DNA from: Chitinophagales bacterium
GTDB taxonomy: Bacteria > Bacteroidota > Bacteroidia > Chitinophagales > Chitinophagaceae
Assembly (NCBI GenBank): GCA_031425315.1
Contig: JANPJC010000283.1
Coordinates: forward strand, 10,108 to 74,107
Length of the DNA: 64,000 bases
Direction of reading: 5' to 3'
Part shown: positions 14,201 through 48,395 of the stretch, piece after piece
How the letters are laid out: each line of letters starts with the position of its first letter
Numbering within the stretch: the first letter of the stretch is position 1
Notes under the pieces: model-generated
Told to the model about the DNA's origin: nothing
The model's database searches: none
Seen by the model: only the letters and a program-made list of their open reading frames with translations
Position numbers and translations under genes: made by a program

Positions 14201-14340
14201 TAAGCCGTCATAAAGTCTTAGCCGGATATAATTCCGTATCGATAAACAAATTGGAATTCCTGCAAAAAGGAATGTATTTTTTAGTTATTACTGATGATAA
14301 CAACCATGAGATTCAATTCAGAAAAATAGTAAAAAACTGA
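11266..14340 (+). CDS. large Ser/Thr-rich secreted protein with T9SS C-terminal sorting domain
   Basis: Signal peptide. 1024 aa with repetitive Ig-like segments. C-terminal ~80 aa (..GIHIRIYSASGQLMN..GMYFLVITDDNNHEIQFRKIVKN) is typical of a Por/T9SS CTD. Confidence 0.75.
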   Translation: MKSASMLLLIILFYAVNINAQSPGLIVRPPGGNGVTALNPDGNGYSSATTSGFTTDDINQSEIAFKVVPAAIIEPTGDLSSGPSGGFSDIVTRVDGSGFYIYKDATNIYFRLRIGGIVSGSKGYSVLIDTDGKFGASGVNADPNYVAPSGNNVGNPGFEYEVSLQTNFQVAVYNINGTATPGLPVTYALSTNAQISTALSTDGNNADYFYDWYVPLSAIGNPASIRLGITTVVSPSSAFQGSISDIYGINDATSASASSSWQTVVNAQPAISLTSFTGVNATCTAAPVVNTPVIAGAAVTVTGTWTKMDATKPSPATITLYKNGLSVGTVSVSSGGTWSISAGTIVTNDVIYAKAQATGESMCLESNSIKTTACVTPPASPVLTCASIKGISGTMPSTASGNSVVVYLVPTTSASPTSNIVSTGLNLTYPSTTSFAFYTAGCSGGTNNVADGVYMVVTQNGNCFSSPSFACVANGNGTIAALVTNTITLPTPIYPGSIVLSGSGTVSGNILRLFVNGLFVSTITASATTFSFPAVTFNAGDQIRIYSQTTGTACLTQSALFTVSCYNEAPTITTNTTGNLLTGATVIAGISLHPGASVQLYKGASPSGVATGTAATVNGSGAWSVTVPALIANDQYYAIETRNGCASASTAGVTVLTPSTCPTITGNYSDAATSIIGTMPSAFTGTIRLYLDGALIGSQSLTSSTNWNITVTAGTLYYNAAMRATAQATGSAESAGCSSKTISCTPPLQPTISPLSSTIAVGQTVNFSVSNSTINSWYALTDNSGVSYAPSAYRTNTSNFTLTSATFTTSGTYNLKLSSDLLTGCPSAFTNTTIQVNMLVPLRLVQFNGTYFDGRLFFNWQTEDEYNVSHFEVEESTDGNNFTELIRQPAQTNFSITHFYKAEKNKRLTQSTHYRLKVTDLDGTRQYSKIILLKPDGSDNGISVSPNPFSNYLQLKYLTRENSGIHIRIYSASGQLMNISRHKVLAGYNSVSINKLEFLQKGMYFLVITDDNNHEIQFRKIVKN

Positions 14341-14358
14341 TCGATTTACCAGGTAAGA

Positions 14359-15618: not shown

Positions 15619-15619
15619 G

Positions 15620-16680
15620 GCACTATGCAATAGGCAATAGCGAACAGCCAATACAGATTTTAGGTATGACAAATACTTTCCATTTCAGTTGAATATTTTG
15701 TGATAGAGTTTCTCCGTGAATCTCCTGTATATCATCTCCTGCTGTTTCTCCGTGTAACAAAACTATTTTGGAGACAAAGTTAACGCCGGATTTCGAGTTG
15801 AACGAAGAAGGGCTGTTTCTCAGCTTACCTCATAACCTCCGTTAAACTCCGTGGCCGAAAAATATCATCATTTGGGATCAACAGATTTAAAAGCCTGGAC
15901 ACAATACAGGCTTTAGGTAAAACAACACTCCGGACATTCGGCTTTCATTTGGCCACAGAGATAAGCGGAGATTTTGAGTTGAACGGAGAGTCGTTGTATT
16001 GGCTGTTCCTCAGCTTACCTAATAACCTCCGTTAAACTCCGTGGCCGAAAAAATATCATCATTTGGGATCAGCAAATTTAAAAGCCTGGACACAATACAG
16101 GTTTTAGGTATAACAACACTCCGGACATTCGACTTTCATTTGGCCGCAGAGTTAAGCGGGGATTTTGAGTTGAACGGAGAGTCGCTGTATTGGCTGTTCC
16201 TCAGCTCACCTCAAAACCTCCGTTAAACTCCGTGGCCGAAAAAAGTATTTGGGTAAATAAATTCAAAAGTTCGGAAACAGAGGGCCACTAAGAAACAAAG
16301 GACACAAAGGAACAGCCAATACAGGTTTTATGTTTTAGGTATTAGGTTCGCCCAATACTTTCCATTTCAATTGAATATTTTGTGAAAGAGTTTCTCCGTG
16401 AATCTCCTGTATTTCATCTCCTGCTGTTTCTCCGTGTAACAAACCATTTTGGAGATACAGTTAAGCCTGGATTTCGAGTTGGACGAAGAAGGGCTGTTCC
16501 TCAGCTCACCTCAAAACCTCCGTTAAACTCCGTGGCCGAAAAAAGTATTTGGTTAAGTAAATTCAAAAGTTCGGAAACAGAGGGCCACTAAGAAACAAAG
16601 GACACAAAGGCACAGCCACTAGGGGTTTTATGTTTTATGTTTTAGTTAAATACATGGCTACCAATTATCCTATTGACTTA
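15620..16680. repeat. ~1-kb composite intergenic repeat locus (heptamer head + GAACAGCCAATACAG core + CTCCGTGAATCTCCTGTAT and CTCCGTTAAACTCCGTGGCC hairpin modules; internal duplications)
   Basis: Core at 15642-15656 and 16310-16325. Reverse cores at ~15999 and ~16185. About 190-bp direct duplicates at 15838-16025 and 16026-16212. 15660-15870 is repeated at 16330-16550. Confidence 0.85.
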
Positions 16681-16689
16681 TTCACGCAT

Positions 16690-21289: not shown

Positions 21290-21520
21290 CGATTTCTTTA
21301 TTTTCCGGCAAGATTTTTTCCCGGGTGAAATTTTTTTTCGGGCCGCGTAGGTGTCAGACACCTCGAAGCGTTTTGTTTGATCAAATCCCGCGAAGGTGTC
21401 TGACACCTAAGCGGCCCGAAGTTTTCGATTTTCTTTTTTACGGCAAAGGTTTTTTTCCGCTTTGAAAATGTTTTTTTCCCAATAGTTTTGTGCATTACCG
21501 CCGGCAAACCATATCTGCCG
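21290..21520. repeat. inverted-repeat element with two copies of the palindrome GGTGTCAGACACC around a TTGATCAA loop, flanked by T-rich direct repeats
   Basis: Left arm CGGGCCGCGTAGGTGTCAGACACCTCGAAGCG and right arm CGCGAAGGTGTCTGACACCTAAGCGGCCCG are near-perfect reverse complements. Flanks TTCGATTTCTTTATTTTCCGGCAAGATTTTTTCC and TTCGATTTTCTTTTTTACGGCAAAGGTTTTTTTCC. Confidence 0.85.
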
Positions 21521-21622
21521 CCTGTCAGCTATCACCCCAAATTCGGTGAAAGCATCCGGTATTTCCGGTCAGCAGATACCCTTGATCGTTCCAATAATTT
21601 TGACCTTATAAAATAAAAAATT

Positions 21623-22903
21623 ATGAGACGATTCAAAGACACACTGGCCGGTATTATATTTTTATCCGCCTTTACGATTTTATCCTGTTCCAGGAGTAGC
21701 GTTCCGGAGCAATCTTTTAAAAACATTTCAGGTCAAACTATTTTAGAATGGAATGAAATGGCTTACCAGGCCTTCGACGGGCCTGCGTATCAGCACTCTC
21801 TTATGGCTTCAAGGATCAATGTAATGGTGCATATTGCCATGCACGATGCAGTGAATGCCATTGAACCTGTATATGCCACCTACGTATTTAAGGGCAGGGA
21901 TATTTTGGCAGAGCCCGTTACGGCCGCATCAACTGCAGCTTACGAAATTCTTCTGCATGAAATTCCACAGCAAAAAGCAATGCTGGATTCAGGGCTCGCT
22001 GCTTCACTCAGCAAAATTCCTGCTGGTGATGCTAAAGAAAGAGGTATAGTAATTGGCAAACAGGCCGCGCTTGCGCTCATCGCACTACGTAGCAATGACG
22101 GAGCTAATGGCAATCCAATTGCAGAAATTCCAGTAAGTACTGTTCCAGGTAAATACCAGGTTGTACCACCATTTAATTTTGTCTTCGCTCCTTTTTGGGA
22201 AAACGCAAAATTATTTGGCATTCAAAACAAAAACCAGTTCAGGCCTGCAGCACCACCATCATTAAACAGCGAAAGATATGCGCAGGACTACAATGAAGTA
22301 AAAGCAATCGGCAAACTCCAATCTGACACGCGCACAGCAGATGAATCTGCTTATGCAAAATTCTGGTATGAGTTTTCAGAAGCCGGATGGAACCGCGTAG
22401 CGAGGACATTAGTGATGAAGAAACAACTTAACCTGGCAGAAACAGCGCGTTTGTTTGCTTTGGTGGATATGGCAATAGCAGATGCCTATATTGCCGGCTG
22501 GGACGCCAAATTTGCGCACGATTACTGGCGCCCATTTACGGCTATTCGTAACGGTGATAAAGATGGTAATGCTCAAACTACTCCAGATGCAACCTGGGAA
22601 CCCGCGGAGCCCACTCCACCCGTTCAGGATTTTCCGAGTACGCATAGTGCTCTTGGAAATGCAGCAGCGACAGTGTTGGTAAGATTAATCGGCAACAATA
22701 ATTCATTCAGCATGACATCTCCAACTGCTTTACCTGAAAGCAAGGAGCGCTCATTCAGTACAATCTACCAGGCAGCTGATGAAAATGCAAATTCAAGAGT
22801 GATAGCCGGAATACATTTCAGGTTCAGTTGCATGGCCGGACAACAACTAGGCAATGAAATTGGCAATTGGATTGTTGATCATCAATTAAAAACCTTAAAG
22901 TAA
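21623..22903 (+). CDS. vanadium-dependent haloperoxidase / PAP2-superfamily (acid phosphatase-like) protein
   Basis: Lipoprotein-like N-terminus. Motifs YWRPFTAIR, PSTHSALG and SRVIAGIHF match the PAP2/haloperoxidase active-site signature. Confidence 0.7.
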   Translation: MRRFKDTLAGIIFLSAFTILSCSRSSVPEQSFKNISGQTILEWNEMAYQAFDGPAYQHSLMASRINVMVHIAMHDAVNAIEPVYATYVFKGRDILAEPVTAASTAAYEILLHEIPQQKAMLDSGLAASLSKIPAGDAKERGIVIGKQAALALIALRSNDGANGNPIAEIPVSTVPGKYQVVPPFNFVFAPFWENAKLFGIQNKNQFRPAAPPSLNSERYAQDYNEVKAIGKLQSDTRTADESAYAKFWYEFSEAGWNRVARTLVMKKQLNLAETARLFALVDMAIADAYIAGWDAKFAHDYWRPFTAIRNGDKDGNAQTTPDATWEPAEPTPPVQDFPSTHSALGNAAATVLVRLIGNNNSFSMTSPTALPESKERSFSTIYQAADENANSRVIAGIHFRFSCMAGQQLGNEIGNWIVDHQLKTLK

Positions 22904-22985
22904 TTTTTTTCTCTAAAGCTTTCTACAACAGGGAATTTCTGCTGAGGAATTCCCTGTTGTTATTTCGCACCAATCGCTTTCTGAT

Positions 22986-23429
22986 TTGCGTTTTGTTAGA
23001 TACCTTTATTGGATCGTGAAGTATATAAAAGTTGCATGCAGGTATTTTATTCTACTGGTTTGGCTGATTAACGGTCTTTACTGTAAGTTGCTCAATGGAG
23101 TTCCGCGTCATAGGGAGATTGTCGCACGGATTTTAGGCGATGATTATGCAGTACTCCTTACCAGACTAATTGGCGTTGGAGAGTTACTTATTTTTGTCTG
23201 GATACTCAGCCGGCTTTGGCTCAAATGGTGTGCCTTTGTGCAAATTATATTGATTGCCGTTATGAACACCATTGAGATTTTAATGGCACCCGATCTTTTG
23301 CTATTTGGAAAATACAATGGTCTTCTTGCCATCGCGTTAATGATCATTATATATGTTGATACTTTTGTGCTGAATGACAAACCTCGTTATGCATATCCGC
23401 AAAATCCGAAACGTCAACCAATGAGCTGA
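22986..23429 (+). CDS. small membrane protein (DoxX-like)
   Basis: Three to four hydrophobic helices. No specific motif. Confidence 0.35.
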   Translation: MRFVRYLYWIVKYIKVACRYFILLVWLINGLYCKLLNGVPRHREIVARILGDDYAVLLTRLIGVGELLIFVWILSRLWLKWCAFVQIILIAVMNTIEILMAPDLLLFGKYNGLLAIALMIIIYVDTFVLNDKPRYAYPQNPKRQPMS

Positions 23430-25310: not shown

Positions 25311-25835
25311 AGTGCGAAATACGAAGTGAGAAGTACGAAGTAAACAGCCCCGGACAGGTGGTTATGTTATTGTTTAATAAGAGTGAATGGGTGAATAGGG
25401 CAATATGATAATCGACAGCCGACGATTTCAACTAAAACTTAATCCATCTTCTTATAACTTTTTTCGGGCCACGGGGATGAGCGGAGAGTTTGAGATAAGC
25501 GGAGAACAGCCAGTGCATCAATACTCTGTTTAATTCAAAACCACTGTTTATCTATGTCGCCAAAGAAAATTAAAATAATTGCAAAAGTAAATAGCCTGCA
25601 AATATTGTATACTTTAAATATTTACTTACAACTTTAAAAATGTAACAAAGAAATTCTGTTACACGGAGAAACAGCAGAAGATAAAAGGCAAGAGATTCAC
25701 GGAGATTTCCTCTTCAGATAACAACCAGACTAAATGAACAACATCTTTATTAAATGTATAATTTAAAAGGTATAACTGTATTGGCTGTTCCCTGCTTACT
25801 GCTCACTACTTACTATTCACTAATCATCATTATCT
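25311..25835. repeat. complete composite repeat element with inverted heptamer+core termini
   Basis: Plus-oriented head AGTGCGAAATACGAAGTGAGAAGTACGAAGTAAACAGCC at 25311. Minus-oriented head (revcomp TAGTGAATAGTAAGTAGTGAGCAGTAAGCAGGGAACAGCCAATACAG) at 25775-25822. Internal GGCCACGGGGATGAGCGGAGAGTTTGAGATAAGCGGAG and TGTTACACGGAGAAACAGCAG...GATTCACGGAGA modules. Confidence 0.8.
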
Positions 25836-29739: not shown

Positions 29740-29830
29740 TTGATGTGCAGAGATACGAAAAAAGTGGGAAGGGGGAAGGGGGAAGTGCGAAGTATGAAGT
29801 GCGAAGTAATTAACAGCAAAAGGCAGAAGT
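29740..29830. repeat. orphan heptamer-array head (GTGGGAA GGGGGAA GGGGGAA GTGCGAA GTATGAA GTGCGAA GTAATTA ACAGC)
   Basis: Tandem 7-mers ending in ACAGC, related to the heads of the repeat family. Lies 10 bp upstream of the GH5 start codon. Confidence 0.6.
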
Positions 29831-35023: not shown

Positions 35024-35480
35024 AATAGCAGACGGAAGACGGTAGACGGTAGGCAGTAGAGAACAGCCAATACAAAGACGGTAGACGGTAGACGGTAGGC
35101 AGTAGAGAACAGCCAATACAGGTTTTACGTTATAAGTTATATGTTTAACACGCCTGTTAGTCTTCGGCGATCAACTGTAGCGGCAAGGCATGCCTTGCCG
35201 CTACAAGAACAGCCAATACAGGTTTTACTTTATAAGTTATATGTTTAACACGCCTGTTAGTCTTCGGCGTACAACAGTAGCGGCAAGACATGCCTTGCCG
35301 CTACAAGAGCAGCCAATACTGGTTTTACGTTATAAGTTATATGTTTAACACGCCTGTGAGTCTTCGGAGTACAACAGTAGCGGCAAGGCATGCCTTGCCG
35401 CTACAAGAACAGCCAATACACACTGAAGTACTTGAATGATATCAAATCGTACTGTTGTATTAACGTAAAACGTAAAACTT
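35024..35480. repeat. repeat locus: two heptamer heads (GACGGTA)n + core, then three tandem ~121-bp units each carrying a perfect hairpin GTAGCGGCAAGGCATGCCTTGCCGCTAC
   Basis: AACAGCCAATACA at 35062, 35109, 35207, ~35327 and 35407. Unit = core + TTTTACGTTATAAGTTATATGTTTAACACGCCTGTTAGTCTTCGGCG + hairpin. Confidence 0.85.
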
Positions 35481-35542
35481 ACAACGTATAACTGTATCGC
35501 CTGTGCCTTTTGCCTATCTTTATTCCACAACCAATTTCCCAA

Positions 35543-37534: not shown

Positions 37535-37685
37535 ATTATCTTTAAAATATTAATTTGCATTTAACCGAATAAGATTGTGAGTGATTGAATTACATCATTC
37601 GAAATCTTTAATAATTCATCAAATTTCAATTGAATTTAACGACTTTATAAACAATAGCTATTCAGTAGCGAATTAAATTTATCGA

Positions 37686-38846
37686 ATGAAAAATAACAGA
37701 AGGCAATTTTTAAGGCAGTCCGCAGCATTGGCCGGTATTGCCGCAACAGCAGGAATTGAGTCTGTGTCTGCAAAGCATTCGTATGATACTTCTATCCAAA
37801 ATAAATTAAACGGCGATATTAAAGATGCCGGAATGGAAATGAGTGAGGCCTTTTTCTTTGGTATGGAAGAGCGAAAAGTTGCCCTCATGAAACAGATGGC
37901 GGTATTTGGCGCAGTTGGTGGCATCAATACCAATATGGTGGGCTTGCCAAAAGAAAAACCCTGGGAAGCCAACGCAATAAAAGCAGTCAATGAAGCCTGG
38001 AAAAATGCCGGAATGAAATTTAATGTTATTGAAGGGCCGCCATCATTAGGGGAAAAAACCAAACTCGGACTGGAAGGCAGAGATGAAGAAATTACCAATT
38101 TCATCACTTTCATGAAAAACCTCAAACAACACACCGAAATAGATGTGATCTGTTATAACTGGATGCCGGTGATCAGTTGGTACCGTACTAAAAAAGATGC
38201 GGTTGGTAGAGGTGGCGCATTGGTTACGGCTTTTGATTATGACGATATTAAAGATGCACCTCTTACGCCTCATGGAATTGTGACCAAAGAAAAATTATGG
38301 CAAACGCTTGAGTATTTTCTCAAAGCAGTTGTACCCGAAGCGGAAAAGATCGGTATCAAACTGGCAATGCATCCTGACGATCCGCAAGTTGACAGTATTA
38401 AGGGCATTTCACGTATCATGACCAATGTGAATAATTTTAAAAGAATGACTGAAATTGTAAAAAGTCCGAATAACGGTATTACCATGTGCCAGGGAAATTT
38501 TGCATTAATGGGTGTAGACATTCCCGAAACCATTCATTATTTTGGAGAAAAGGGATTGATTCATTTTGTGCACTTCAGAAATGTCAAAGGAGGCAAATTT
38601 AAGTTTGAAGAATCTTTTCACGATGAAGGGATTATCGACATGTACGCCGCGATGAAAGCATATTATGAAATCGGATTCAAAGGTGCAATACGTCCCGACC
38701 ACGTGCCTACTATGGCTGGTGATAGTAATCAATATGCAGGCTACAGTACAATCGGCACCTTATATGCGTTTGGTTATATCAGAGGGCTGATGCAGGCAGT
38801 AAGTAATAATAATAGAAAAAGTACCGACGTCATGCATTCAATTTAA
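37686..38846 (+). CDS. uxuA: mannonate dehydratase (UxuA) homologue with Tat signal
   Basis: Tat-like RRQFLRQSAALAGIAATAG. CYNWMPVISWYRT (E. coli UxuA CYNFMPVLDWTRT), AMHPDDP and RPDH motifs match UxuA. Confidence 0.7.
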   Translation: MKNNRRQFLRQSAALAGIAATAGIESVSAKHSYDTSIQNKLNGDIKDAGMEMSEAFFFGMEERKVALMKQMAVFGAVGGINTNMVGLPKEKPWEANAIKAVNEAWKNAGMKFNVIEGPPSLGEKTKLGLEGRDEEITNFITFMKNLKQHTEIDVICYNWMPVISWYRTKKDAVGRGGALVTAFDYDDIKDAPLTPHGIVTKEKLWQTLEYFLKAVVPEAEKIGIKLAMHPDDPQVDSIKGISRIMTNVNNFKRMTEIVKSPNNGITMCQGNFALMGVDIPETIHYFGEKGLIHFVHFRNVKGGKFKFEESFHDEGIIDMYAAMKAYYEIGFKGAIRPDHVPTMAGDSNQYAGYSTIGTLYAFGYIRGLMQAVSNNNRKSTDVMHSI

Positions 38847-38899
38847 GAGCCGGTCATCGCATTAGTTTTTGACCTGGAAATCAAGCTTGACGATGAAAA

Positions 38900-39676
38900 T
38901 TCCTTTAATCGATGCATGCTTAGTCTGTACGTTATTTCAATAATTCCATTAATCCTGTCAGCACTTCAGTTTCAAAACCAGGATAAATCGCAAGACTTTG
39001 ATCCCACAAATCAGTATTATTCAATACCAATTTTACGATCTCATCAATATTATGGTTTTACCACAATTCAAAATAGTATTCGGCAGACGCCTCTACAATG
39101 GGATAACAGTTACCTTTTAATTCGCCGAAATACTTCCCATCTTTTTTTTGAACCACACACATGAACTTCAAGTAGCCGCCGAATCCGCACGCAATCAGAT
39201 CAGGTACAGTATTAAAACCTCCAAAATTTTTTGCAATGCACAGAACGACACGCATTTTCATTTAGCCAGCTCATCAAAACTCAATCCTTCTCCATGTAAT
39301 AGTGAATATGAAAGAACTTTTAATACTTCCACCATGTCCCGAGACTGATGTACACCACAAACTTTCATTTGTATGCAACAATTAGACTTACCGTTTCTGC
39401 AGGCAACACATTTACCACCGTTGAAATAAGGAATAAATGTGACCGCTTCCCACGCACAAATCCCGGCGTATCGCCTTCATCGAAAGTTGCAGACAGTTCA
39501 TGGCCAAAAATCCGAGGGTATTCGAAAAACGGTTGTGTACCTTTAAAAGCGTGCAAATCAGTGCCACATATGCCGATGCGTTTAATTTCAATGAGTGAAT
39601 AACCATCTTGAAAAACTGGCAGATCAGCTTCTATATATTCAAAACTGCCTGGAGCATTACAATCTAAGATTCTCAT
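38900..39676 (-). pseudogene. decayed Zn-dependent alcohol/polyol dehydrogenase
   Basis: 103-aa N-terminal fragment with GroES-like ADH motifs (GICGTDLHAFKG, FGHELS) then loss of frame. Downstream 39058-39261 fragment continues in another frame. Confidence 0.5.
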
Positions 39677-39856
39677 TTTGCTTTATCTGTTAAGTACTGA
39701 ATTAATAAGGCCAGGTTATGTACTGCCAGATCCTGATGCAATCATTTGCAGCTGAGGTAAATATCTCGGGAGAAAGGCTTGAATAATACAATCAGTAACT
39801 ACTCCACAGCTGGTTGTATTGATTAATCTATAGCTCCTGTATAGCCGGCAGTTTGT

Positions 39857-41143
39857 TCAATGCCTTATTCCCGTATTGGAAGTTGCAAGGTTTCGATTAT
39901 CCCCCGATACCTTGTATCCTTTCCATCCAAAAAAGAAGATCACGATGAAACAAAACATAGGGATGAAATATCCATTCTGAATATTTCCGGTATAATCGCT
40001 GACATATCCAAAAATCCAGGGGATAACGGCACCACCAACAATTGACATAATAATCAAACTGCTGCCGAACTCTGTATCGCGGCCAAGTTTGTTGATACCT
40101 AATGCAAATATGGTGGGAAACATTATCGACATAAAAAAGCAGATTCCAATCACTGCGTAAATGGTATACATGCCATGAGCGAAAACCACACTACAACATA
40201 ATACTACGTTGATAGCCGCATACAATGCGAGTAAAGTTGGAGGTTTAATATATTTCATTAAAAAAGTTCCAAGGAAACGACCAATCAAAAACGCGATCCC
40301 ACAAGCACCTAAATAATCTGCTGCCATTACCTGCGTTATTGCAGCTGCATCCACTGCAAATAATATGAACAGGCTGAAAACTGAAACCTGTGCGCCAACA
40401 TAAAAAAACTGCGCCGCTACTGCCCACGAAAGATGTTTATGCCGAAGTGCATGAAAAATGTTTGCACCTTTTTCAGCCCCACCTTCAGTTTGCTGTATTG
40501 CCGGCAACTTGATAAATGCAAATACAATTGCAATCAACACCAAAACGATACCCAATACCAGATAAGGCATCTTAACAGATGATGCTTCTGAAGCCAGGGC
40601 AAATTGTTTCGCGGTATCAGTCATTTGAGCGAGCTCTTCGTCTGACGTACCTTTAGTAAGAATAATCCTTGCACCAATTACTGGAGCAAGTGCTGCAGCC
40701 AACCCGTTAAATGACTGCGCAAGATTGAGCCGCTGCGTAGAGGTTTCAGGGCTTCCCAATGAAGCGGCGTATGGATTTGCAGCTGTTTCAAGAATAGTGA
40801 GTCCACACGCTATAATAAACAGGGCAATTAAAAAAAATGAATACGACTGCTGATCTGCAGCAGGTAAAAATAAAAAACATCCGATGGCGAAAATCAGCAG
40901 GCCAATAATAATTCCAATCTTATAGCTGAACTTTTTCATGATATATCCTGCCGGTAGTGCCATTATAAAATACGCAATGAAAACAGCTGAATCAACCAGG
41001 GTCGACTGAGTAGTGGTTAATGTAAACGACTTTTTGAGGTGAGGGATTAAAATGGGGTCCAGGTTATGCGCAAAGCCCCAAAGAAAAAAAAGTGAAGTAA
41101 TCAGTATAAAGGCAAATCTATAATTGGATGTTGAAACTGGCAT
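39857..41143 (-). CDS. MFS sugar:H+ symporter, FucP (fucose/glucose/galactose permease) family
   Basis: 12-TM MFS. N-terminal LFFLWGFAHNLDPILIPHLKKSF is typical of FucP-family permeases. Confidence 0.8.
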   Translation of the reverse strand: MPVSTSNYRFAFILITSLFFLWGFAHNLDPILIPHLKKSFTLTTTQSTLVDSAVFIAYFIMALPAGYIMKKFSYKIGIIIGLLIFAIGCFLFLPAADQQSYSFFLIALFIIACGLTILETAANPYAASLGSPETSTQRLNLAQSFNGLAAALAPVIGARIILTKGTSDEELAQMTDTAKQFALASEASSVKMPYLVLGIVLVLIAIVFAFIKLPAIQQTEGGAEKGANIFHALRHKHLSWAVAAQFFYVGAQVSVFSLFILFAVDAAAITQVMAADYLGACGIAFLIGRFLGTFLMKYIKPPTLLALYAAINVVLCCSVVFAHGMYTIYAVIGICFFMSIMFPTIFALGINKLGRDTEFGSSLIIMSIVGGAVIPWIFGYVSDYTGNIQNGYFIPMFCFIVIFFFGWKGYKVSGDNRNLATSNTGIRH

Positions 41144-41502
41144 GCTGTTTTACTTTTCGTTGAATGCTGAAATTTAATCAATCGGATTACTACATCCTGA
41201 CATTTCTGCTTTTGAATGTGTATCCTGTTTACGCCTTAAAGATTGCGATTTAAATTGAAATTTTGAATGAATGGCCATTCCAATTCAACAACATTTCAAA
41301 AAAAATCAATTTTCATTGATAAACTGAAAGGGGGAATATGCAACATGCAGGTAATTAATATGCATCAGCTCAACCCCTTCATTTATGTTTACGGATCATC
41401 GTTCCCAGCAGTAAACCTACAGCGAAGCAAGTAAAATCAGTACCTTTATTAACTCAATATATTGTACTATATTAACATAGTAAATTTAAAACGATGTACA
41501 AA

Positions 41503-42350
41503 TGAGACCGGTTCTCCGCCAGGTTACTTCCAAACCGGAATATTCCTTTACTGTTAGAAAAGACGAAGGGGAGAACACGCTTAACAACTGGCACTATCAT
41601 CCGGAGATTGAAATACTCAATAAAAAAGAAGTGTGGGCAACTGGCTGATTGGAGATCATATCGGTCATTTTACAAGTAGAGATATAGTAATGATCGGCCC
41701 AAATCTTCCCCATTGTTTCCGGCTTGAATATGATTATATCATCAAAAAGAAGAGAAAGCCGGAGAATCCTTTTTTGTGTGAAGTTTTTACCTGAAACATA
41801 GGTCATGTTTTTCTTAGCCTGCCTGAAAACAAATCGATAAGGGAACTCAAGACGAAATGTGTAAGGGTGCTGCAAACTAAAGGAAAAGTGAAAAATGAGA
41901 TTGGTACCCTCTTTGAAAAAATGGCATCATGCTTTCCAGCCAAAAGGATCACTTACCTGCTTTCGGTTTTCGCTGACATAGCAGATAGCCGGGAATTTCA
42001 GTCACTTTTTTCTCCGGGATTTATTTTAACGACAGCTGATACTGACAAAGAAAGAATCAGATTAATTTTTGAATATTCAATCACCCGTTATGCAGAAAGA
42101 ATTACAATCGAAGAACTTGCTACTCTGTTCAGCATGATGCGACAATCTTTTATCAGGTATTTTAAAAGAAAAACCAATAAAACTTACGTCCGGTTTTTAA
42201 TGGAAGTGAATTGAACGTGCATGTAAATTATTGTTTGAAATGAAAAAACGTTGCTGAAATCAGCTATGCATGCGGTTATAATAATATCTCACATTTCAAT
42301 CATCAATTTAAAAATATTACTGGGAAAAAACATTGAAATAAAAGAGGGAT
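41503..42350 (+). pseudogene. AraC-family transcriptional regulator disrupted by multiple stops/frameshifts
   Basis: Frame 1 gives MRPVLRQVTSKPEYSFTVRKDEGENTLNNWHYHPEIEILNKKEVWATG* (AraC cupin). A second frame gives GDHIGHFTSRDIVMIGPNLPHCF. ORF 41867-42214 carries the AraC HTH start (ITIEELATLFSMMRQSFIRYFKRKTNKTYVRF), followed after a stop by the second HTH helix region. Confidence 0.6.
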
Positions 42351-43280
42351 TATATTAGTGAGCAGTAAGCAGTAAGTAGTGAGCAGTAAGCAGTGAGCAG
42401 TAAGTAGTGAGCAGTGAGCAGTAAGCAGTGAGCAGCCGATGGCTGTTATTTCTCCGTTAAACTCAAATGCTCCGTTCAACTCCGTGGCCAAAAAAAATTT
42501 ACTAACAAGAAAGTTTTAGTTTTCTAATGCACGCCACAGAGATAAGCTGAGGTTTTGAGATAAGCGGAGAAAAAATGGCGGTACAAATTATGGCAAATAT
42601 GATTGCTTAATAGAATTATTAGTTGCTAACCTCCGTTAATCTCAATTGCTCCGTTCAACTCCGTGGCCCAAAAAATCTACCATCAAGAAAATTTAAGTTT
42701 TCTAAGGCAAGCCACAGAGATAAGCTGAGGTTTTGAGATAAGCGGAGAAAAAAAGGCAATTCATTTTAGGACTAATATGAAAGCTTGATAGATTTGTTTA
42801 CTGTTATGCTCCGTTAAACTCAAATGCTCCGTTCAACTCCGTGGCCAAAAAATCTAACATCCAGAAAATTTAAGTTTTCTAAGGCAAGCCACAGAGATAA
42901 GCAGCGGTTTTGAGAGGAACGGAGAAAAAATGGCGATATAAATTATGGCAAATATGATTGCTTAATAGAATTATTCGTTGTTATCCTCCGTTAATCTCAA
43001 TTGCTCCGCTCAACTCCGTGGCCCAAAAAATCTACTATCACGAAAATTTAAGTTTTCTAATGCAGGCTACTGCTGTATTGGTTACAATTCTCTTGTGCCC
43101 AAGTGTTTTTTGCTACACGGAGGAACAGCCGGAGCTTAAATACAGGAGATTCACGGAGATAACTCAAGAATATTATATAGCCCGTTATCAGCTACTGTCT
43201 ACCTTCTACCAACTTTTGTATCGTCTGTTGCCTACTTTCTGTTTTCTACCGTCTACCTACTCTTGTATTGGCTGCTAACG
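42351..43280. repeat. complete composite repeat element: plus head (AGTGAGC/AGTAAGC)x13, four tandem ~175-185-bp hairpin units, minus head (GGTAGAC-type heptamers + core)
   Basis: Units start at ~42454, 42640, 42812 and 42985 with CTCCGTTAA(A/T)CTCAA(A/T)TGCTCCGTTCAACTCCGTGGCC paired to GCCACAGAGATAAGCTGAGGTTTTGAGATAAGCGGAG. CTCCGTGAATCTCCTGTAT module (reverse) at ~43110-43150. Reverse core CTTGTATTGGCTGC at 43262-43275. Confidence 0.85.
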
Positions 43281-43753
43281 TAAAACTGAATTGGCTCATC
43301 GAATACCCGGGCAGTTGAATCGAAATTGGGATACCTAGCCATAGGCATCAGCTGCCCTTCACAAAACAACTGATCCATTTTTAATCCTTTGCCAATCAGA
43401 GCCTGCTTTACATGGTCTTTGAAATTTTTCCCCTGAACTGCCAATGGAATCGCTCCGGAAATAATAACATTTTCATTCTTATATGCGCTAATTGCTAATT
43501 TCCGGCCGTCCAAATCCGCAGGAGCTATTTGTACAGTTTTGATTAACGGATAATTTCCCTCCCGAAAAAAAATAACCGCTGAATCACTTTTTACGCCAGC
43601 TACTTTTTGTAGGGCAGCCTCTAAAGTTTTCAGCGGTTTGCTGATAGTACCTGCGGCATTATCATTTCCACTTTCGGCCACAAATATGGTTTGTGAAAAA
43701 CAAATCATCACAGGCTGAAAAACGCAGAGGATCAATATTTTAATGAAATTCAT
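43253..43753 (-). CDS. N-terminal fragment of a right-handed beta-helix (pectate-lyase-like) secreted protein; C-terminus and stop provided by the repeat element
   Basis: Signal peptide + AESGNDNAAGTISKPLKTLEAALQK beta-helix N-cap, but only 166 aa. The last residues SSQYKSR* are encoded by the revcomp of the repeat core GCAGCCAATACAAGAGTAGGTAG. Confidence 0.5.
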   Translation of the reverse strand: MNFIKILILCVFQPVMICFSQTIFVAESGNDNAAGTISKPLKTLEAALQKVAGVKSDSAVIFFREGNYPLIKTVQIAPADLDGRKLAISAYKNENVIISGAIPLAVQGKNFKDHVKQALIGKGLKMDQLFCEGQLMPMARYPNFDSTARVFDEPIQFYVSSQYKSR

Positions 43754-43815
43754 TTTAACGTATTCTATTGCTTAAAAAGCAATGAATATAGTAAATGAAG
43801 TGATTAAAAATTCCG

Positions 43816-45255
43816 CTATTCCATCCTGTTCTTTTTGCTCCAGCTTTTATGCTTGGCTCCATCCATTTTTACAATCTTTGGTGTAAACCGTCCAACCACA
43901 TCTACTAATACCTGCTGACTTTTCATTACTGATTCAATATCCTTGTAAGCGAAAGGCGATTCATCCAACCCTCCTCCCATCAATTTCACTCCATGCATTG
44001 CCAGGATATCTTTCATCGCTTTTTCAGTAATTGACTGCAATGCCGCAGTTCTGCTCATTTTGCGCCCTGCACCATGTGAGGCTGATGATAGGGAAGACGG
44101 TTCTCCTTTTCCTTTTACAATAAAACCATCAGCCGTCATAGACCCAGGAATAATCCCTAAAACATTTTTTTCCGCAGGTGTCGCGCCCTTTCTGTGCACT
44201 ATCACTTCCCTGCCTTCAAACATTTCTTTCCAGGCAAAATTGTGATGGTTTTCCACCCGCACGATGGGTTGTTCTCCAAGCTGCAGAGCAATTTTATCAT
44301 GAATGATATGATGACATGCCGATGCATAGTCGCCTGCAAGTTTCATTGCAATCCAGTACTGTGCGCCTTCTTCTTCATCCAGGTTCAGCCATGCAAGGTT
44401 GGCAGCCTCGGATGGTAATCGCCTTTTTTCTTTTGCGATCTTAGTAAAATGATTGGCGATTGTTGCACCTAATCCACGTGAACCTGAATGCGACAACAAG
44501 CCCATATATTCACCAACAGGCAGTCCCAAAACATCATCCTGTTCTTTAATGTCTACGACACCAAATTCAACGAAATGATTTCCGGAGCCGGAGCTTCCTA
44601 ACTGCCGCCAAGCTTTATCCTGCAGTCCTTTGAGTAAAGGCACATCATTAAAAGCCGGATCTGTCAACACATCATGATCAGCAGGTTTCACAAATTGTGA
44701 ACCGTTTCCAAACAATGTGGCTTCATTCAGTTCACGAACAAAATACTGCTCACGCTTTTGCAATTCGCCTGGAGAAAGACTGAATACACTTAAACACATA
44801 CGGCATCCAATATCCACTCCCACGCCATATGGTATCACAGCATTTTCAGTAGCCAGCACCCCGCCGATTGGTAAACCATAACCGCTATGGGCATCCGGCA
44901 TTAATGCACCAGCCACCGCAACAGGTATTTTAGAAGCAGTTTGCATTTGCATTAAGGCCCCTTCCTCAATATGTTCAGCTCCAAATATCGAAAACGAAAT
45001 TCCCTGCTGATTTAAATCAATTGTTTCCCATGACGTTGGAGGTGGCGGCATAAAATAGTGAGCAATCAGTTGCAGCTTTTCATATTCCATATACTCAGAA
45101 GGTGCAGCCTGTATACGTTTCAGCAATTCAAGAACTTCTTCTTTATTGCTATGTTTAAACTGCTGCTGCATCACCTGCATGGCCACACTAATAACGGGCC
45201 CTTCAGGATATCCTATTGCCCGCAATTCTTTCCCGCTTAATTTTAATTTTGACAT
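43816..45255 (-). CDS. rtcB: RNA-splicing ligase RtcB
   Basis: 479 aa. Metal-binding and GAGR-type motifs (SASHGAGRKMS), HNFAWKE, NHAGVD-like core. Confidence 0.9.
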   Translation of the reverse strand: MSKLKLSGKELRAIGYPEGPVISVAMQVMQQQFKHSNKEEVLELLKRIQAAPSEYMEYEKLQLIAHYFMPPPPTSWETIDLNQQGISFSIFGAEHIEEGALMQMQTASKIPVAVAGALMPDAHSGYGLPIGGVLATENAVIPYGVGVDIGCRMCLSVFSLSPGELQKREQYFVRELNEATLFGNGSQFVKPADHDVLTDPAFNDVPLLKGLQDKAWRQLGSSGSGNHFVEFGVVDIKEQDDVLGLPVGEYMGLLSHSGSRGLGATIANHFTKIAKEKRRLPSEAANLAWLNLDEEEGAQYWIAMKLAGDYASACHHIIHDKIALQLGEQPIVRVENHHNFAWKEMFEGREVIVHRKGATPAEKNVLGIIPGSMTADGFIVKGKGEPSSLSSASHGAGRKMSRTAALQSITEKAMKDILAMHGVKLMGGGLDESPFAYKDIESVMKSQQVLVDVVGRFTPKIVKMDGAKHKSWSKKNRME

Positions 45256-45601
45256 CTTTCTTTTTTTTGCGCAATAACTTCAGAGCAATAATTATTCCTT
45301 TCATTATACCTCTTTTGTTATCGCAATTCATTTAAGCAATTCAATTAATAGATAAAATTTCTATGTCCGTGATTCAATGTCTTTGAAATAAGTATAATCC
45401 ACCTACTCAGCGGTGCTTTTTTGAACCACATAGACACATAATTAAATACAAAAGAATTTTCTATGTGCCCTCTATGCCTATGTGGCGGATGTTCCCTTGG
45501 GAGACTAATCTGCAAAAACAGTAAGTCTTGATTCGATCCGTTCCTTATTTCAACGACATTGATCCATGATTCACAAAACTTTAATTTTCAATTTTACACA
45601 T

Positions 45602-46702
45602 CTACTTTGCCGGCACAAACATTTGCTTCAACTGATCTGCCAACGCGCTGCTGCCATTGACGCTGATACTACTAATTTTTTCTGCGATCTTTTCCACGTA
45701 TTCCATCTCTTTCAATTTCCACAACATCGCATTTTCTTCCATCAGTTTTGCAGTATTCATCAAACTCCTGGTGCTGGCGGTCTCTTCCCTTCTCATGATA
45801 GTGTTAGCCTGCGCCTGCTTTTCAGCCACCATCACCCTGTTCATAATTTCCTTGATGTCACCTGGCAAAATGATATCCCTGATACCAAATGCAAAAACAG
45901 TCACGCCCAATTTCTCTGCCTGATCCTTTATTTTCTCAATCATAAATGCAGAAAGGGAATCTTTTTTCTCCAGCAATTCATCAAAACTATATCCAGCCAC
46001 AAATTCCCTTAATACCAGTTGCAGGCCAATATACAATTGCTTTTCAAATTCTTTATTCTGCAATAAAGCCTTTTCCACATCGGTTACAGCATACTGCGCC
46101 CACGCATTTAATCTCAAAGCAGCTTTGTCCCTGGTTAAAATTTCCTGCCCAGTTATTTCAAGCTGTAATTGCCTTGCATCAACTTTGTTTACCAAAATCG
46201 GTATGGCATTTTTCCACCAGCAATAAACGCCGCTTTCCAATATTCTGCTGAATTTCCCATCAACAAGTAATACCGCTTTTTCATAACTCTCTACTGCGTA
46301 TACCCGTACAAAAGGTGCAAGCACTTTATTCATCAGTATACTTCTGTCTGTTATCTCAGTAATTTCTGTTTTACTGATATCTACATATACAAATTCATAT
46401 TGCACCACAGATTTCCAGAAGCAATATCTGCCCGCGACCAATATCTCTTTCAACAATCCATTCACAAACAGTAATACCAGCTGGTTATCCTTCACTTCCA
46501 CTACCTGGAACTTAGCGGACAGCTGACTGTCACTTAAAAGAATATTTAACTCAACCGGTGGATTAAATGGTTCGGTCAGTTCAAATATTTTCACGGCTTT
46601 ATTACTCCTGATCCAGTATTTACCCGCAGTAAGAAACCTGCTGTAGGCGCCGTCTTTCAATAATAATCCAATCTGCCATTCATTGATAATAATCTTTCTC
46701 AT
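45602..46702 (-). CDS. slipin/SPFH (band-7) domain protein
   Basis: C-terminal SPFH-like region with coiled-coil (EKQAQANTIMRREETASTRSL). Confidence 0.65.
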   Translation of the reverse strand: MRKIIINEWQIGLLLKDGAYSRFLTAGKYWIRSNKAVKIFELTEPFNPPVELNILLSDSQLSAKFQVVEVKDNQLVLLFVNGLLKEILVAGRYCFWKSVVQYEFVYVDISKTEITEITDRSILMNKVLAPFVRVYAVESYEKAVLLVDGKFSRILESGVYCWWKNAIPILVNKVDARQLQLEITGQEILTRDKAALRLNAWAQYAVTDVEKALLQNKEFEKQLYIGLQLVLREFVAGYSFDELLEKKDSLSAFMIEKIKDQAEKLGVTVFAFGIRDIILPGDIKEIMNRVMVAEKQAQANTIMRREETASTRSLMNTAKLMEENAMLWKLKEMEYVEKIAEKISSISVNGSSALADQLKQMFVPAK

Positions 46703-47012
46703 ATCTGTTTGTTTTGGTTTTTTGTTATAAATGATTACTATAAGCCTTCAATTATCACGGGACATTACCTGTTTAAAAATTCGGTTACATCATTTCAACT
46801 TTCCCAAATGGCCGGGAAAACCAAAATCATTTAACATCCATCGTCAACATGGTGAGTCGCAGGTAAATCACTGAATGTAACCGGCAGCTTTTTTGCAAAC
46901 CACCATTACCGGCTTACAGTAACCATTTATGGATCGCCATTTGAGAAGTGGCGGACTTCGTTAGGTCTACAGCCTGAGTGTAGTGCTTTCGCCGCTAAGC
47001 TATTCCGCCATA

Positions 47013-47062
47013 AGCGGAAGCAGGAGTCGAACCTGCGTTTTGTTGCTCTACCATTAAGCTAC
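47013..47062 (-). other. tRNA-like remnant: D-arm-like GGTAGCTTAATGGTAGAGC + T-arm GCAGGTTCGACTCCTGC + TTCCGCT, but no anticodon arm
   Basis: Seen on the reverse complement. I could not fold a full cloverleaf (no matching 5' acceptor strand, only ~8 nt between D- and T-arms). Confidence 0.3.
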
Positions 47063-47065
47063 CGT

Positions 47066-47093
47066 TGTTACACGGGGAGGATTCGAACCTCCA
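47066..47093 (-). other. tRNA-like remnant: T-arm GGAGGTTCGAATCCTCC + 3' acceptor-like CCGTGTA
   Basis: Canonical T-stem/loop on the reverse strand, with no foldable upstream D/anticodon arms. Confidence 0.3.
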
Positions 47094-47384
47094 ACACACA
47101 TGCATAACCGATTCTTGCAATAGCATACAATTCGTTATTACGATTGCACTGTACTGGATACATCCAGCCACCCGGATTGCAAGTCATCTGGTTAAGACTA
47201 CTTCCCTTCCGGAAAGTCTCTTTCTGATATTTCTATCCAGTTAAATTATCTAAAGAACTCATTTTCAATTGATGATACAAAACTATCCGACCACTGTGCA
47301 ACCATTTTGCACAGTAAAAAGAAAAATGAATTATTTTTAAAAAAAGTTAGCATCAGAGGAAATCCGGGAGATTACAATTCAGTT

Positions 47385-48395
47385 ATGCCGATCAACAGAA
47401 ATGCACTCATTCGTTACAGAACAATTGACCGATGCCTGCAAAACAGGAGAAGAAAATGGTCGATAGAAGATTTGATGGATGCCTGTTCATCAAGTCTATA
47501 CGAAATTGATGGCGTCAATAAACCAATCAGTCTTCGCACCATCAGGCTCGACCTGAATATGATGCGGGGCGATAAACTGGGATACAATGCTCCCATCATC
47601 GTAAAAGAAAAAAAATATTATAGTTATGAGGACGCTGATTATTCCATTTCAAATATTCCATTAACCGGCAACGACCTTGATGTATTGAATGAAGTATCGC
47701 ATCTTCTGCAGCAATACAAAGGATTCAGCCATTTTCATGAAGTATCTGAAATCATCAGTAAGTTGGAAGACAAGATCTACAGTGAAAAAAATCATAATGT
47801 TTCATTGATTGATTTCGAAAAAAATGATTTGCTGGCAGGAATTGAATGGCTGGACATTTTATATAAAGCCACAGTTTCGAAAACTGCTATTCAGCTCTGT
47901 TATCAATCGTTTAAGGCCAGGGCTGCTACCGAAATTATAGTATACCCCTATCTCCTGAAAGAATACCGGAACAGGTGGTTTGTAGCGGCATCGAAGAAAA
48001 AGGAAAAGCATGTGAATATATTTGCGCTGGACAGGATTCAAAAAATAACGATTCTTCCATCAGAACCATTTTACCAAAACCCTGCCTTCGATCCCGCTAC
48101 ATGGTTTGCCGATATTATTGGTGTTACCAGAAATTCGGCCGAAAAACCAACAGAAATAAGGTTCCTGGCCAATCCCCTTCATGCACCCTATATTCAAACC
48201 AAACCTTTGCACCCCTCTCAGCAAATAATCGAAAAAACCAATCAAGGTATTGTATTCAGTATCTGCGTAATCCCCAATTTTGAATTGGAAAAAGAATTGC
48301 TGGGATTCGGCGAAGGAATAAAATTGTTATTCCCGGCGTACATGGTACGAAGAATTAATGGTAAAATTAAAAAAATGGCAAAGCTGTATATTTAA
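47385..48395 (+). CDS. WYL-domain HTH transcriptional regulator (start moved to MPINRNALIRYRTIDRCL)
   Basis: N-terminal wHTH signature, central WYL-like region, C-terminal WCX-like region. Confidence 0.65.
   Translation: MPINRNALIRYRTIDRCLQNRRRKWSIEDLMDACSSSLYEIDGVNKPISLRTIRLDLNMMRGDKLGYNAPIIVKEKKYYSYEDADYSISNIPLTGNDLDVLNEVSHLLQQYKGFSHFHEVSEIISKLEDKIYSEKNHNVSLIDFEKNDLLAGIEWLDILYKATVSKTAIQLCYQSFKARAATEIIVYPYLLKEYRNRWFVAASKKKEKHVNIFALDRIQKITILPSEPFYQNPAFDPATWFADIIGVTRNSAEKPTEIRFLANPLHAPYIQTKPLHPSQQIIEKTNQGIVFSICVIPNFELEKELLGFGEGIKLLFPAYMVRRINGKIKKMAKLYI

Follow-up and report, generated by a model that had tools for sequence, protein, structure and literature searches.

Positions 42351-43280 of a 64,000-nucleotide stretch of Chitinophagales bacterium DNA (contig JANPJC010000283.1; the whole stretch is called the window below) hold an intergenic cluster of tandem heptamers, a short conserved core and long hairpins. 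The question raised by this locus is whether it is a single mobile element, a set of regulatory sequences serving its neighbours, or one assembly of parts that also occur elsewhere. We find that its modules form a dispersed, modular, non-coding repeat family which is previously undescribed, and that the true inverted-repeat units of this family are hairpin elements of ~115-190 bp, in which two 38-nt arms surround a variable loop. The family is dispersed and mosaic, is biased towards the 3′ ends of genes, turns over between species and is associated with gene truncation. We lean towards the view that it is a lineage-restricted, non-autonomous mosaic repeat family which has probably spread in trans, with arrays grown by slippage, and which may be comparable in kind to repetitive extragenic palindromes (REPs), their bacterial interspersed mosaic elements (BIMEs) and hairpin-forming doublets (REPINs), and MITEs (miniature inverted-repeat transposable elements).

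The host is a soil-type member of the Bacteroidota, family Chitinophagaceae. The window (G+C ~40%, with a monotonic GC skew) carries genes for proteins sorted by the type IX secretion system (T9SS), TonB-dependent receptors and glycoside hydrolases, and those homologues of its TonB-dependent receptor that carry a name are from members of the Chitinophagaceae, for example Flavitalea and Ferruginibacter. The comparison draws on two genomes, represented by the 64-kb window and by 22 kb of the closest other genome (the sister), a 6.47-Mb contig from the Joint Genome Institute (JGI) whose TonB receptor is 86% identical. The sister locus (L023, 22.5 kb) is syntenic with ~14.9-37.5 kb of the window in reversed orientation. 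Four more distant relatives, with receptors 67-78% identical, were also compared (67 kb altogether).

Modules of the family and the joints between them

The initial annotation of the window had proposed a recurring, modular intergenic family, and motif counts bear this out. In the window, the 15-nt core GAACAGCCAATACAG has 13 matches at no more than two mismatches (0.13 expected), the arm end CTCCGTGGCC has 14 (1.2 expected) and TCTCCGTGAATCTCCTGTAT, part of what we call module 3, has six (0.01 expected); the 'CTCCGTGAATCTCCTGTAT' module likewise occurs far more often than chance predicts. Self-comparison by BLAST showed 3.7 kb of the window to be repeated, with an overlap with annotated genes that never exceeds a few bases. 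Tandem Repeats Finder detected period-7 arrays at every locus listed in the annotation and flanking modules in eight intergenic gaps, together with longer tandem units of 178 bp (42444-43064), 191 bp (15811-16244) and 100 bp (35106-35420). The ten loci first counted reduce to these eight gaps, since the cores at 16310 and 43262 fall inside other listed loci. In addition, the stretch 52850-52930 belongs to another hairpin family, recognised by GGTGTCAGACACC, and 29740-29830 holds an array and a degenerate core and none of the other blocks.

The arms are 38-nt strings of the form CTCCGYTNANCTC(A)AAAN-CTCCGYTNANCTCYGTGGCC, in which CTCCG motifs lie ~10 nt apart, or about one helical turn. They are non-palindromic, end in GTGGCC and fall into two conserved types, with A forming the left side of a hairpin and B the right. 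Each hairpin unit (~115-190 bp) consists of an arm A and an inverted arm B around a loop of 43-95 nt. The inverted arms (37-43 nt) pair imperfectly, A/B pairs being 71-74% complementary, and the loops are wholly different from one subfamily to another. These units have the terminal inverted repeats around a non-coding stretch of 50-500 bp that are expected of a MITE, and their arm A/arm B pairs are inverted doublets making a long hairpin, as in REPINs. Every arm for which a neighbour can be traced has its CTCCG end joined to a core or to the half-core GGCTGTTC/GAACAGCC. The 198-nt unit at 15811-16008 has folding z-scores of -3.9 (+ strand), -4.0 (- strand) and -3.1 (as DNA), and the hairpin is therefore without strand preference. 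Such equal folding on either strand and as DNA fits a DNA-level element better than a strand-specific RNA. Heads (the arrays that open onto a core) and cores are unstructured (z -2.2 to +1.7), and a stem formed by purine heptamers pairing with GTTTTAY heptamers across the core is unsupported over the same range of scores. Module 3, TCTCCGTGAATCTCCTGTAT-N10-GCTGTTTCTCCGTGTAACAAA, is conserved in five copies and always lies 60-200 nt from a core, on the ATACAG side and in constant relative orientation.

When every CAGCC of the window was displayed in 7-nt phase, the arrays were seen to enter GAA-CAGCCAA-TACAG in phase and with zero spacer (for example TAGACAG TAGAGAA [CAGCCAA]; TAGGCAA TAGCGAA [CAGCCAA]; and CAGTAAG CAGGGAA [CAGCCAA]). 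YAG or AAG stands at the positions matching CAGCCAA in four of five unit types, and the stretch 3′ of the core is frequently 7-periodic as well, being built of GTTTTAY units. On its left, the core is joined to a heptamer array, an inverted arm A, a GGCCAC..ACAAAGG string or a palindrome; on its right, it is joined to GTTTTAY units followed by module 3, to CGAGT followed by arm B, or to another array. Left and right partners assort freely in many combinations, and the core is therefore better described as a junction, or hub, between modules than as the terminus of an element.

The heptamers had been described as differing from locus to locus, and a 'templated, variable terminus' had been suggested to account for this. 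Instead, the unit types recur: AGTGAGC at 1344, 25795 (- strand) and 42357; AGACGGT at 35030, 35076, 52523 and 43190 (- strand); and AGTGCGA at 25310 and 29762, while GGCAATA, GTTGCGG and AGTGCGA arrays are found in the sister genome too. They thus form a small repertoire common to several loci and to both species, we see no evidence for a templated terminus, and slippage, put forward at the same time as the source of array length, is reasonable. In overall form, these are intergenic, head-to-tail 7-nt arrays of several dispersed unit types. The main types carry stop codons in all three frames of the purine-rich strand and none on the opposite strand. By hand count, five of eight unit types contain a stop codon against ~0.29 expected for each, an enrichment which is suggestive only. 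GTAG is present in nearly every AGACGGT-type unit (seven occurrences in 35027-35108 and seven in 43190-43262). A replication-strand bias of the core was also considered; the hand tally of orientation, set against the monotonic GC skew, gave five loci on + and three on -, with no clear bias.

The in-phase joints invite a further proposal, which we regard as a long shot. In this scheme, the 15-nt core would be the cleavage or crossover site of an undescribed Chitinophagaceae enzyme (a HUH/Y1 nuclease or a recombinase) whose repeated action with a 7-nt stagger would lay down the arrays. On this view, 7-bp duplications, iterated and seeded from YAG-NNNN units beside CAGCCAA, would have produced the arrays, and not slippage. 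If true, such enzymatic scars would represent a new mechanism for tandem heptamers and may bear on the arrays of cyanobacteria and other Bacteroidota. It is unusual for a core that resembles a hub to be fused in phase to heptamers of several types, and this could open the origin of bacterial heptamer arrays to testing.

The cluster at 42351-43280 and the ends of genes

The focal cluster begins 20 nt past the stop of an AraC pseudogene with a head of 11.3 tandem heptamers (AGTGAGC/AGTAAGC/AGTAAGT; 42357-42435, + strand; Tandem Repeats Finder), which is 71% purine and has stops in all three + frames and zero on the - strand. This head runs into a degenerate core and inverted half-core, GAGCAGCCGAT-GGCTGTT (42431-42447, +), which keeps the 7-nt phase of the array in the phase display (..CAGTGAG [CAGCCGA]). 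There follow 3.5 tandem copies of the 178-bp hairpin unit (42446-43064, +; reported by Tandem Repeats Finder as 42444-43064 with 83% matches). Within them, the inverted-repeat search and arm list place arm A, CTCCGTTAAACTCAAATGCTCCGTTCAACTCCGTGGCC, at 42452-42489, 42631-42668, 42809-42846 and 42986-43023, and its partner arm B, GCCACAGAGATAAGCTGAGGTTTTGAGATAAGCGGAG, at 42533-42569, 42711-42747 and 42888-42924, the fourth arm A (42986-43023) being unpartnered. The remainder of the cluster is on the - strand. Module 3, TCTCCGTGAATCTCCTGTAT-TTAAGCTCCG-GCTGTTCCTCCGTGTAGCAAAA (43100-43162; exact 20-mer at 43140-43159 and alignment), shows core-like CTGTAT..GCTGTTC with a 10-nt split and CTCCGTG motifs on its flanks. 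A degenerate array of the AGACGGT/AGGTAGA type, recognised by reading the sequence (43190-43259), has - strand stops in all frames, one of which terminates a truncated open reading frame (ORF) at 43253-43753. The cluster closes with a core variant bearing a GTTTTAC tail, GTTTTACGTTAGCAGCCAATACAAGAG (43260-43286; phase display).

This layout, with a + head at one end and a - head at the other, is what had led to the suggestion that the whole of 42351-43280, and other loci like it, is one MITE-like element with opposed head-plus-core segments as terminal inverted repeats and the hairpins as cargo. Three loci do have a left + head and a right - head, but as an explanation of the family we find this hardly tenable. 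The heptamer types at the two ends differ (AGTGAGC versus AGACGGT at the focal locus, AGTGCGA versus AGTGAGC at 25311-25822), the three loci are 285, 510 and 930 bp long with interiors unrelated in content, and heads also occur singly (29762, 52523, 1320). Moreover, wherever a locus lies between convergent genes, each of its heads is turned towards the 3′ end of one of them. At 25311-25822 each head abuts the stop of one of two convergent genes; in the focal cluster, one head is 20 nt away from the stop of a pseudogene and the other overlaps that of a second, convergent pseudogene. An opposed-head layout would be forced by a gap only a few bp wide at the outset, and insertion into narrow convergent gaps would explain the heads that were read as terminal inverted repeats. 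What stands of the proposed architecture is a dispersed, modular, non-coding repeat family; what does not is the role of heads as paired termini, these being separate, usually of different heptamer type and mostly abutting the stops of flanking genes.

A census of the gaps between 50 genes, from a list curated by hand, gives the wider picture. Family motifs are present in four long convergent gaps (525, 1071, 509 and 916 bp) and in two to four same-direction gaps, whereas all eight divergent (promoter) gaps lack them. Of the five convergent gaps that remain, four measure only 4-18 bp, and the fifth (38847-39856, 1,010 bp) is without family motifs. Like REPs, the family is therefore extragenic and mostly downstream of genes. 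Among 13 heads tallied by hand from sequence reads and the phase display, nine are sense-oriented and lie just past, or overlap, the stop codon of the upstream gene. Stop and array are directly adjacent (0 nt) at 1320, 15619 and 25311, while 6 nt separate them at 35030; at 25822 the TAG stop is itself the first unit; the heads at 42357 and 16713 are ~20 nt away, and the arrays at 52523 and 43262 themselves provide the stop. The TonB-receptor gene has its TAG stop at the same codon in the sister, where there is no array, and the window array was therefore added beside a native stop. Convergent genes are normally 4-18 bp apart, so that insertions would end flush against stop codons; the simplest reading is that an insertion into a gap of originally a few bp has no choice but to lie flush with the stops on both sides.

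The same placement could be taken to mean that the modules are host-selected cis elements of 3′ untranslated regions, the heptamer arrays docking an RNA- or DNA-binding protein and the hairpins protecting mRNA 3′ ends or insulating convergent transcription. Such roles have been proposed for REPs and for TAACTGA repeats (PMC3733652, PMC4679880), and they would suit the nine sense-oriented heads, the avoidance of promoter gaps, the conservation of the core between species and the combination of unstructured heads (z ~0 or positive) with stable hairpins. The 1320 head, which lies between a stop and a terminator-like hairpin, is probably transcribed. Nevertheless, we consider this explanation rather improbable. 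The folding energy of the hairpins has no strand preference, and on hand inspection of the arm list the arm mismatches fit G-U pairs on either strand. Terminator-like T-runs, Bacteroidota promoter motifs and Rfam matches were not found in the modules, orthologous gaps of the two species differ in content, clusters occur between pseudogenes, and close relatives live without the modules. Two narrower ideas were also tried and set aside: the Bacteroidota -33/-7 promoter motif (TTTG..TAnnTTTG) is not in the modules, nor is any terminator-like site, with counts at or below those of shuffled sequences.

Both genes flanking the focal cluster are damaged. On the left is an AraC-type regulator whose helix-turn-helix is spread over two frames and interrupted by a stop, and which is thus frameshifted. 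On the right is the ORF at 43253-43753, whose last 12 codons are the core variant and heptamers. In an exhaustive search, its residues ~5-152 matched the N-termini of proteins reaching 450-2,500 aa, and this homology stops just upstream of the core variant, at the repeat edge; a word-index search for a full-length parent returned only the ORF itself. The focal cluster thus sits between two pseudogenes, one of which is cut exactly at the repeat edge, and here the repeats go together with decaying or rearranged genes and not with the regulation of intact ones.

A 7.8-kb segment that includes the focal cluster (37549-45375; UxuA, a major facilitator superfamily transporter, the AraC pseudogene, the focal repeats, a truncated beta-helix gene and RtcB) is not at this position in the sister, where its flanks adjoin and an (AGTGCGA)n array lies nearby. 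In a third relative (GCA_015689235.1), UxuA is beside PIG-L as in the window, which suggests loss or rearrangement in the sister and not gain in the window. Clustered beside the focal repeats at 43816-48395 are genes for an RtcB RNA ligase, an SPFH/Band-7 protein and a WYL/WCX-domain regulator, a group which may be an RNA-repair module with its regulator.

Turnover between genomes and the origin of the copies

As had been recommended for the family, we searched related genomes for its modules, and found them in the sister with different content. In the gap between the GH63-like and adh_short (short-chain dehydrogenase) genes, family repeats are present in both species, but the gap is 450 bp in the sister versus 1071 bp in the window, with (GTTGCGG)n in place of (GCAATAG)n. 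The sister's gap between the DUF481 and CBM9-domain genes contains cores, arrays and GGCCACAGAG strings in an arrangement that differs from that of the window. The gap 3′ of the TonB receptor is module-free there (198 versus 509 bp), as is the counterpart of the 29762 site, and an (AGTGCGA)n array occurs in the sister at a place without one in the window. An 80-nt composite (GGCCAC..AAAGGAACAGCCAATA..GTTTTA..) occurs at non-orthologous gaps of the two species with 80% identity, while ordinary, neutral intergenic DNA of the pair no longer aligns; together these look like the mark of a family that spreads. In both organisms, contigs assembled from short reads break off within the repeats, and the practical effect is that the repeats break short-read assemblies of this lineage.

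Beyond the sister, the family was not detected. The four more distant relatives have zero arrays and motif counts at background, and a fifth, syntenic relative, for which only a gene map was compared, has a 65-bp convergent gap after the receptor gene. Among 185,579 GTDB representatives, which do not include the source species, exact GAACAGCCAATACAGNTTT gave 20 single matches in unrelated phyla, about the number we estimate for chance and none with CTCCGTGGCC; in JGI metagenomes, exact CTCCGTGNATCTCCTGTAT gave 13 chance matches, none with other modules. These exact-pattern scans pointed to no full-length insertion sequence that shares the termini of the hairpin units and could be their parent. 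BLAST of the family against plasmids and phages returned zero matches. Rfam had no family at gathering score, only sub-threshold matches to generic long hairpins (microRNA precursors) at 17-26 bits where 55-230 are required. Six family-module sequences were sought in the literature and none was in any indexed paper, and a 2,227-aa pseudo-protein assembled from open six-frame pieces of the repeats had zero matches among 5.8 billion proteins. The family is thus not a named one, in agreement with the initial annotation. Judged by these comparisons, it is dispersed, turns over fast with copies kept similar, and is confined to a narrow, poorly sampled clade.

How might such copies have arisen? One answer dispenses with a dedicated enzyme: heptamers would change by slippage, the 100-191-bp units by local tandem duplication and the remainder by recombination or gene conversion between copies, all tolerated in dispensable downstream DNA. 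There is something to be said for this, and we give it a minor but real chance. Tandem duplication makes up most of the bulk of each cluster, copies within arrays are fairly diverged (83-93%), and mosaic joints at a common core match recombination between short homologous cores. Neither a transposase among the window ORFs scanned nor target-site duplications were seen. Passive processes leave unexplained, however, the initial arrival of modules at no fewer than eight (at least eight) separate gaps in 64 kb and at non-orthologous gaps in the sister, as well as the 80-100% conservation of a 15-nt core and 38-nt arms amid scrambled neutral DNA. A 15-nt core is also short for RecA-dependent exchange.

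We therefore return to spread in trans. The building blocks would be the hairpin elements, the core GAACAGCCAATACAG and its half GAACAGCC, module 3 and the purine-rich heptamer arrays, with arms, heptamer arrays and GTTTTAY arrays attached to the core or half-core in many combinations. We infer that an enzyme encoded elsewhere would copy or recombine these modules in trans, acting at core or arm sequences, and that copies would survive solely where harmless, downstream of genes. The heptamer arrays would lengthen and shorten by replication slippage while travelling with the core.

Several observations weigh against this account. No transposase, RAYT (REP-associated tyrosine transposase) or recombinase is linked to the family in the 64 kb of the window; the absence of a transposase had been noted initially and holds for all 43 ORF-derived translations scanned against Pfam. 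No target-site duplications are visible by eye at the edges of 1519-1675 and 49430-49470, a check short of a systematic search, and most edges abut other modules. Base-level alignment of window and sister yielded no clean empty sites because the intergenic DNA is unalignable; coarse presence or absence does differ at three gaps, with intergenic divergence blurring the edges of any empty site. Tandem units are 83-93% identical and arms differ by ~10-25% between loci by eye, so the copies are not young and recent mobility is unproven. The local arrays of 178-, 191- and 100-bp units mean that not every copy needs transposition, and a host function could just as well account for the core being conserved in both species.

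Known repeat systems and other features of the window

The nearest published analogues are REP/BIME elements (PMC3733652), the BrickBuilt MITE (PMC4596501) and heptamer repeats (PMC4679880). The RAYT-associated REP/BIME/REPIN elements of Proteobacteria and others (PMC3733652, PMC3116915) resemble the present family in being extragenic, downstream of genes and between convergent or same-direction ORFs, in often touching or providing stops, in having inverted doublets that form long imperfect hairpins and clustered mosaics of few motifs, and in forming lineage-specific families most copies of which are without an adjacent transposase. They differ in that REPs are 20-40-nt palindromes, whereas the arms here are 38-nt CTCCG strings without an unpaired GTAG/CGTC tag, so that the family lacks GTAG-tagged palindromes; the sole palindrome that begins with GTAG (35178-35205 and its copies) has GTAG within the stem. 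The fusion of heptamer arrays to a conserved core is likewise a feature of this family and not of REP/BIME. GTAG REPs have not been reported from Bacteroidetes (PMC3733652), and the GTAG of this palindrome and of the AGACGGT-type arrays might hint at a RAYT-like nuclease.

BrickBuilt, a MITE of Porphyromonas gingivalis, has a single type of 23-nt repeat between leader and tail subunits (Klein et al. 2015, PMC4596501). As described there, it too is a Bacteroidota element that is intergenic, species-restricted, non-coding and modular, with a variable-copy tandem repeat, a conserved leader and tail with small inverted-repeat ends, and tens of copies. By description, its single-type 23-nt unit differs from the several 7-nt types found here, and it lies 49-591 nt from genes and carries promoters, whereas our heads abut stops and no promoter motif was found.

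The heptamer arrays have their own set of parallels. Cyanobacteria reportedly contain short tandemly repeated repetitive sequences (STRRs), said to have been described by Mazel and colleagues in 1990. In Nostoc, Elhai and colleagues are said to have reported in 2008 very short conserved sequences in or near tandem heptamers and hairpin repeats, forming a modular intergenic 'repeat soup'. These small dispersed repeats and MITEs of Nostoc show a similar modular nesting, in another phylum and with other sequences. As in the long simple sequence repeats (LSSRs), the TAACTGA repeats and the STRRs, the arrays of the window are intergenic with 7-nt units of several types per genome, stop-containing units give stops in three frames, and assemblies break there. 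LSSRs (Mrazek et al. 2007) are summarised in PMC4679880, which itself describes the TAACTGA repeats (MacGregor 2015) and notes heptamer assemblages in a few Bacteroidetes, close relatives of which have shorter, repeat-free gaps. Tandem TAACTGA, CCCCAGT, TTGGTCA or CAACAGT was not found in the window. TAACTGA arrays lie mostly just upstream of start codons, whereas those described here lie just past stop codons and are fused in phase to a conserved core and hairpin modules. REP/BIME/REPIN mosaics are well studied in Proteobacteria but have received hardly any attention in Bacteroidota, and how heptamer arrays arise in bacteria is a standing question. In the present family, heptamers of several types, hairpin arms and a conserved core are physically joined and shuffled, and fill almost all long downstream gaps; were the driving enzyme to be identified, the family would offer a compact system in which to study the origin of arrays and mosaics and gene erosion.

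The other loci combine the same parts differently. At 125-410, located by Tandem Repeats Finder and motif matches, (GTTGCGG)x3.6 and a core (163-177, +) precede module 3 (311-358, +), and the right part has an inverted half-core, GGCTGTTCC, and then AACCTGC-type heptamers (376-401). The cluster at 1320-1810 has a head of AGGGAGA..AGTGAGC units (1320-1373) that starts immediately after a stop codon, a degenerate core, a terminator-like classical hairpin downstream of the head (~1423-1460) and, beyond this, a hairpin unit at 1519-1675 and another arm A at 1721-1767. The largest cluster (15619-16713; Tandem Repeats Finder, motif matches and phase display) starts with a GCAATAG head right after a stop, a core at 15642 and module 3. 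Its middle contains 2.3 copies of the 191-bp hairpin unit, joined via - strand cores at 15994 and 16185, and a core at 16310; its right part has a second module 3, an arm A and a degenerate core with (GTTTTAT)x3, and it ends in a - strand half-core and heptamers overlapping the stop of the GH63-like gene (16690-16692).

The convergent gap at 25311-25822 has an AGTGCGA-type + head directly past one stop, arm B (25467-25510), module 3 (-, 25646-25706), a - strand core (25776-25790) and, last, a - head of the AGTGAGC type; the TAG that ends the TonB-dependent receptor gene is the first unit of this head. A solitary array (AAGTGGG/AAGGGGG/AAGTGCG x6.6; Tandem Repeats Finder) with the degenerate core TAACAGCAAAAGGCAG occupies 29762-29830 (+). 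At 35030-35497 (Tandem Repeats Finder and motif matches), an (AGACGGT)n head and core are duplicated with a 46-bp period, followed by 3.2 copies of a unit 100 bp long, which contains a core, 7-mers of the GTTTTAC type and the palindrome GTAGCGGCAAGGCATGCCTTGCCGCTAC, and by a - strand degenerate core with (GTTTTAC)n. The palindrome is a perfect one of 28 nt (35178-35205, 35278-35305 and 35378-35405) which begins with GTAG like REPs, but its GTAG pairs with CTAC inside the stem. At 52523-52772 (+), an (AGACAGT)n head, which provides the TAG stop of a DUF1003 gene, leads to a core (52547), a solo arm B and a second core variant with GTTTTAC 7-mers; the right part has AGCAGCCAAT with heptamers and then module 3 (52708-52772). 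A degenerate solitary arm, CCGCTCAACTCAAAAACTCCGCCTACCGCTGTGGGCCAC, lies at 49430-49470 (+).

Two other repeat families share the window. One, unrelated to the main family, consists of 2.5 tandem copies of a 134-bp unit at 2841-3330, with a partial copy at 2841-2885; its arms are built as in the main family from other motifs (TTCCCG..TGCCGT..CTTCCCGGC, inverted GCCGGAAAACGCGGGAA), and it folds no better than shuffled sequences (z 0.1 and -0.5). The other, to which 52850-52930 belongs, is a hairpin with a ~24-bp stem around GGTGTCAGACACC...GGTGTCTGACACC, present at 21326-21479 and 52843-52935 and at 15873-16022 of L023. Its hairpins are very stable (z -7.3 and -8.8) and have A- and T-run flanks, like a bidirectional terminator. 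One copy is kept at the orthologous sister position with 77% identity, and the other is immediately upstream of a pfkB-type kinase gene.

Two gene-bearing segments of the window have no counterpart at the syntenic sister position: 10520-14358, with a 1,024-aa T9SS-sorted protein (11266-14340), and 21480-22990, with a PAP2-family protein (21623-22903). Finally, Rfam calls a tRNA at 46949-47009 (- strand) with 29.3 bits against a gathering score of 29, while ARAGORN predicts zero tRNAs in the window; this sequence lies upstream of the WYL/WCX regulator gene, within a divergent gap of 604 bp, and may be what is left of a degenerate tRNA.

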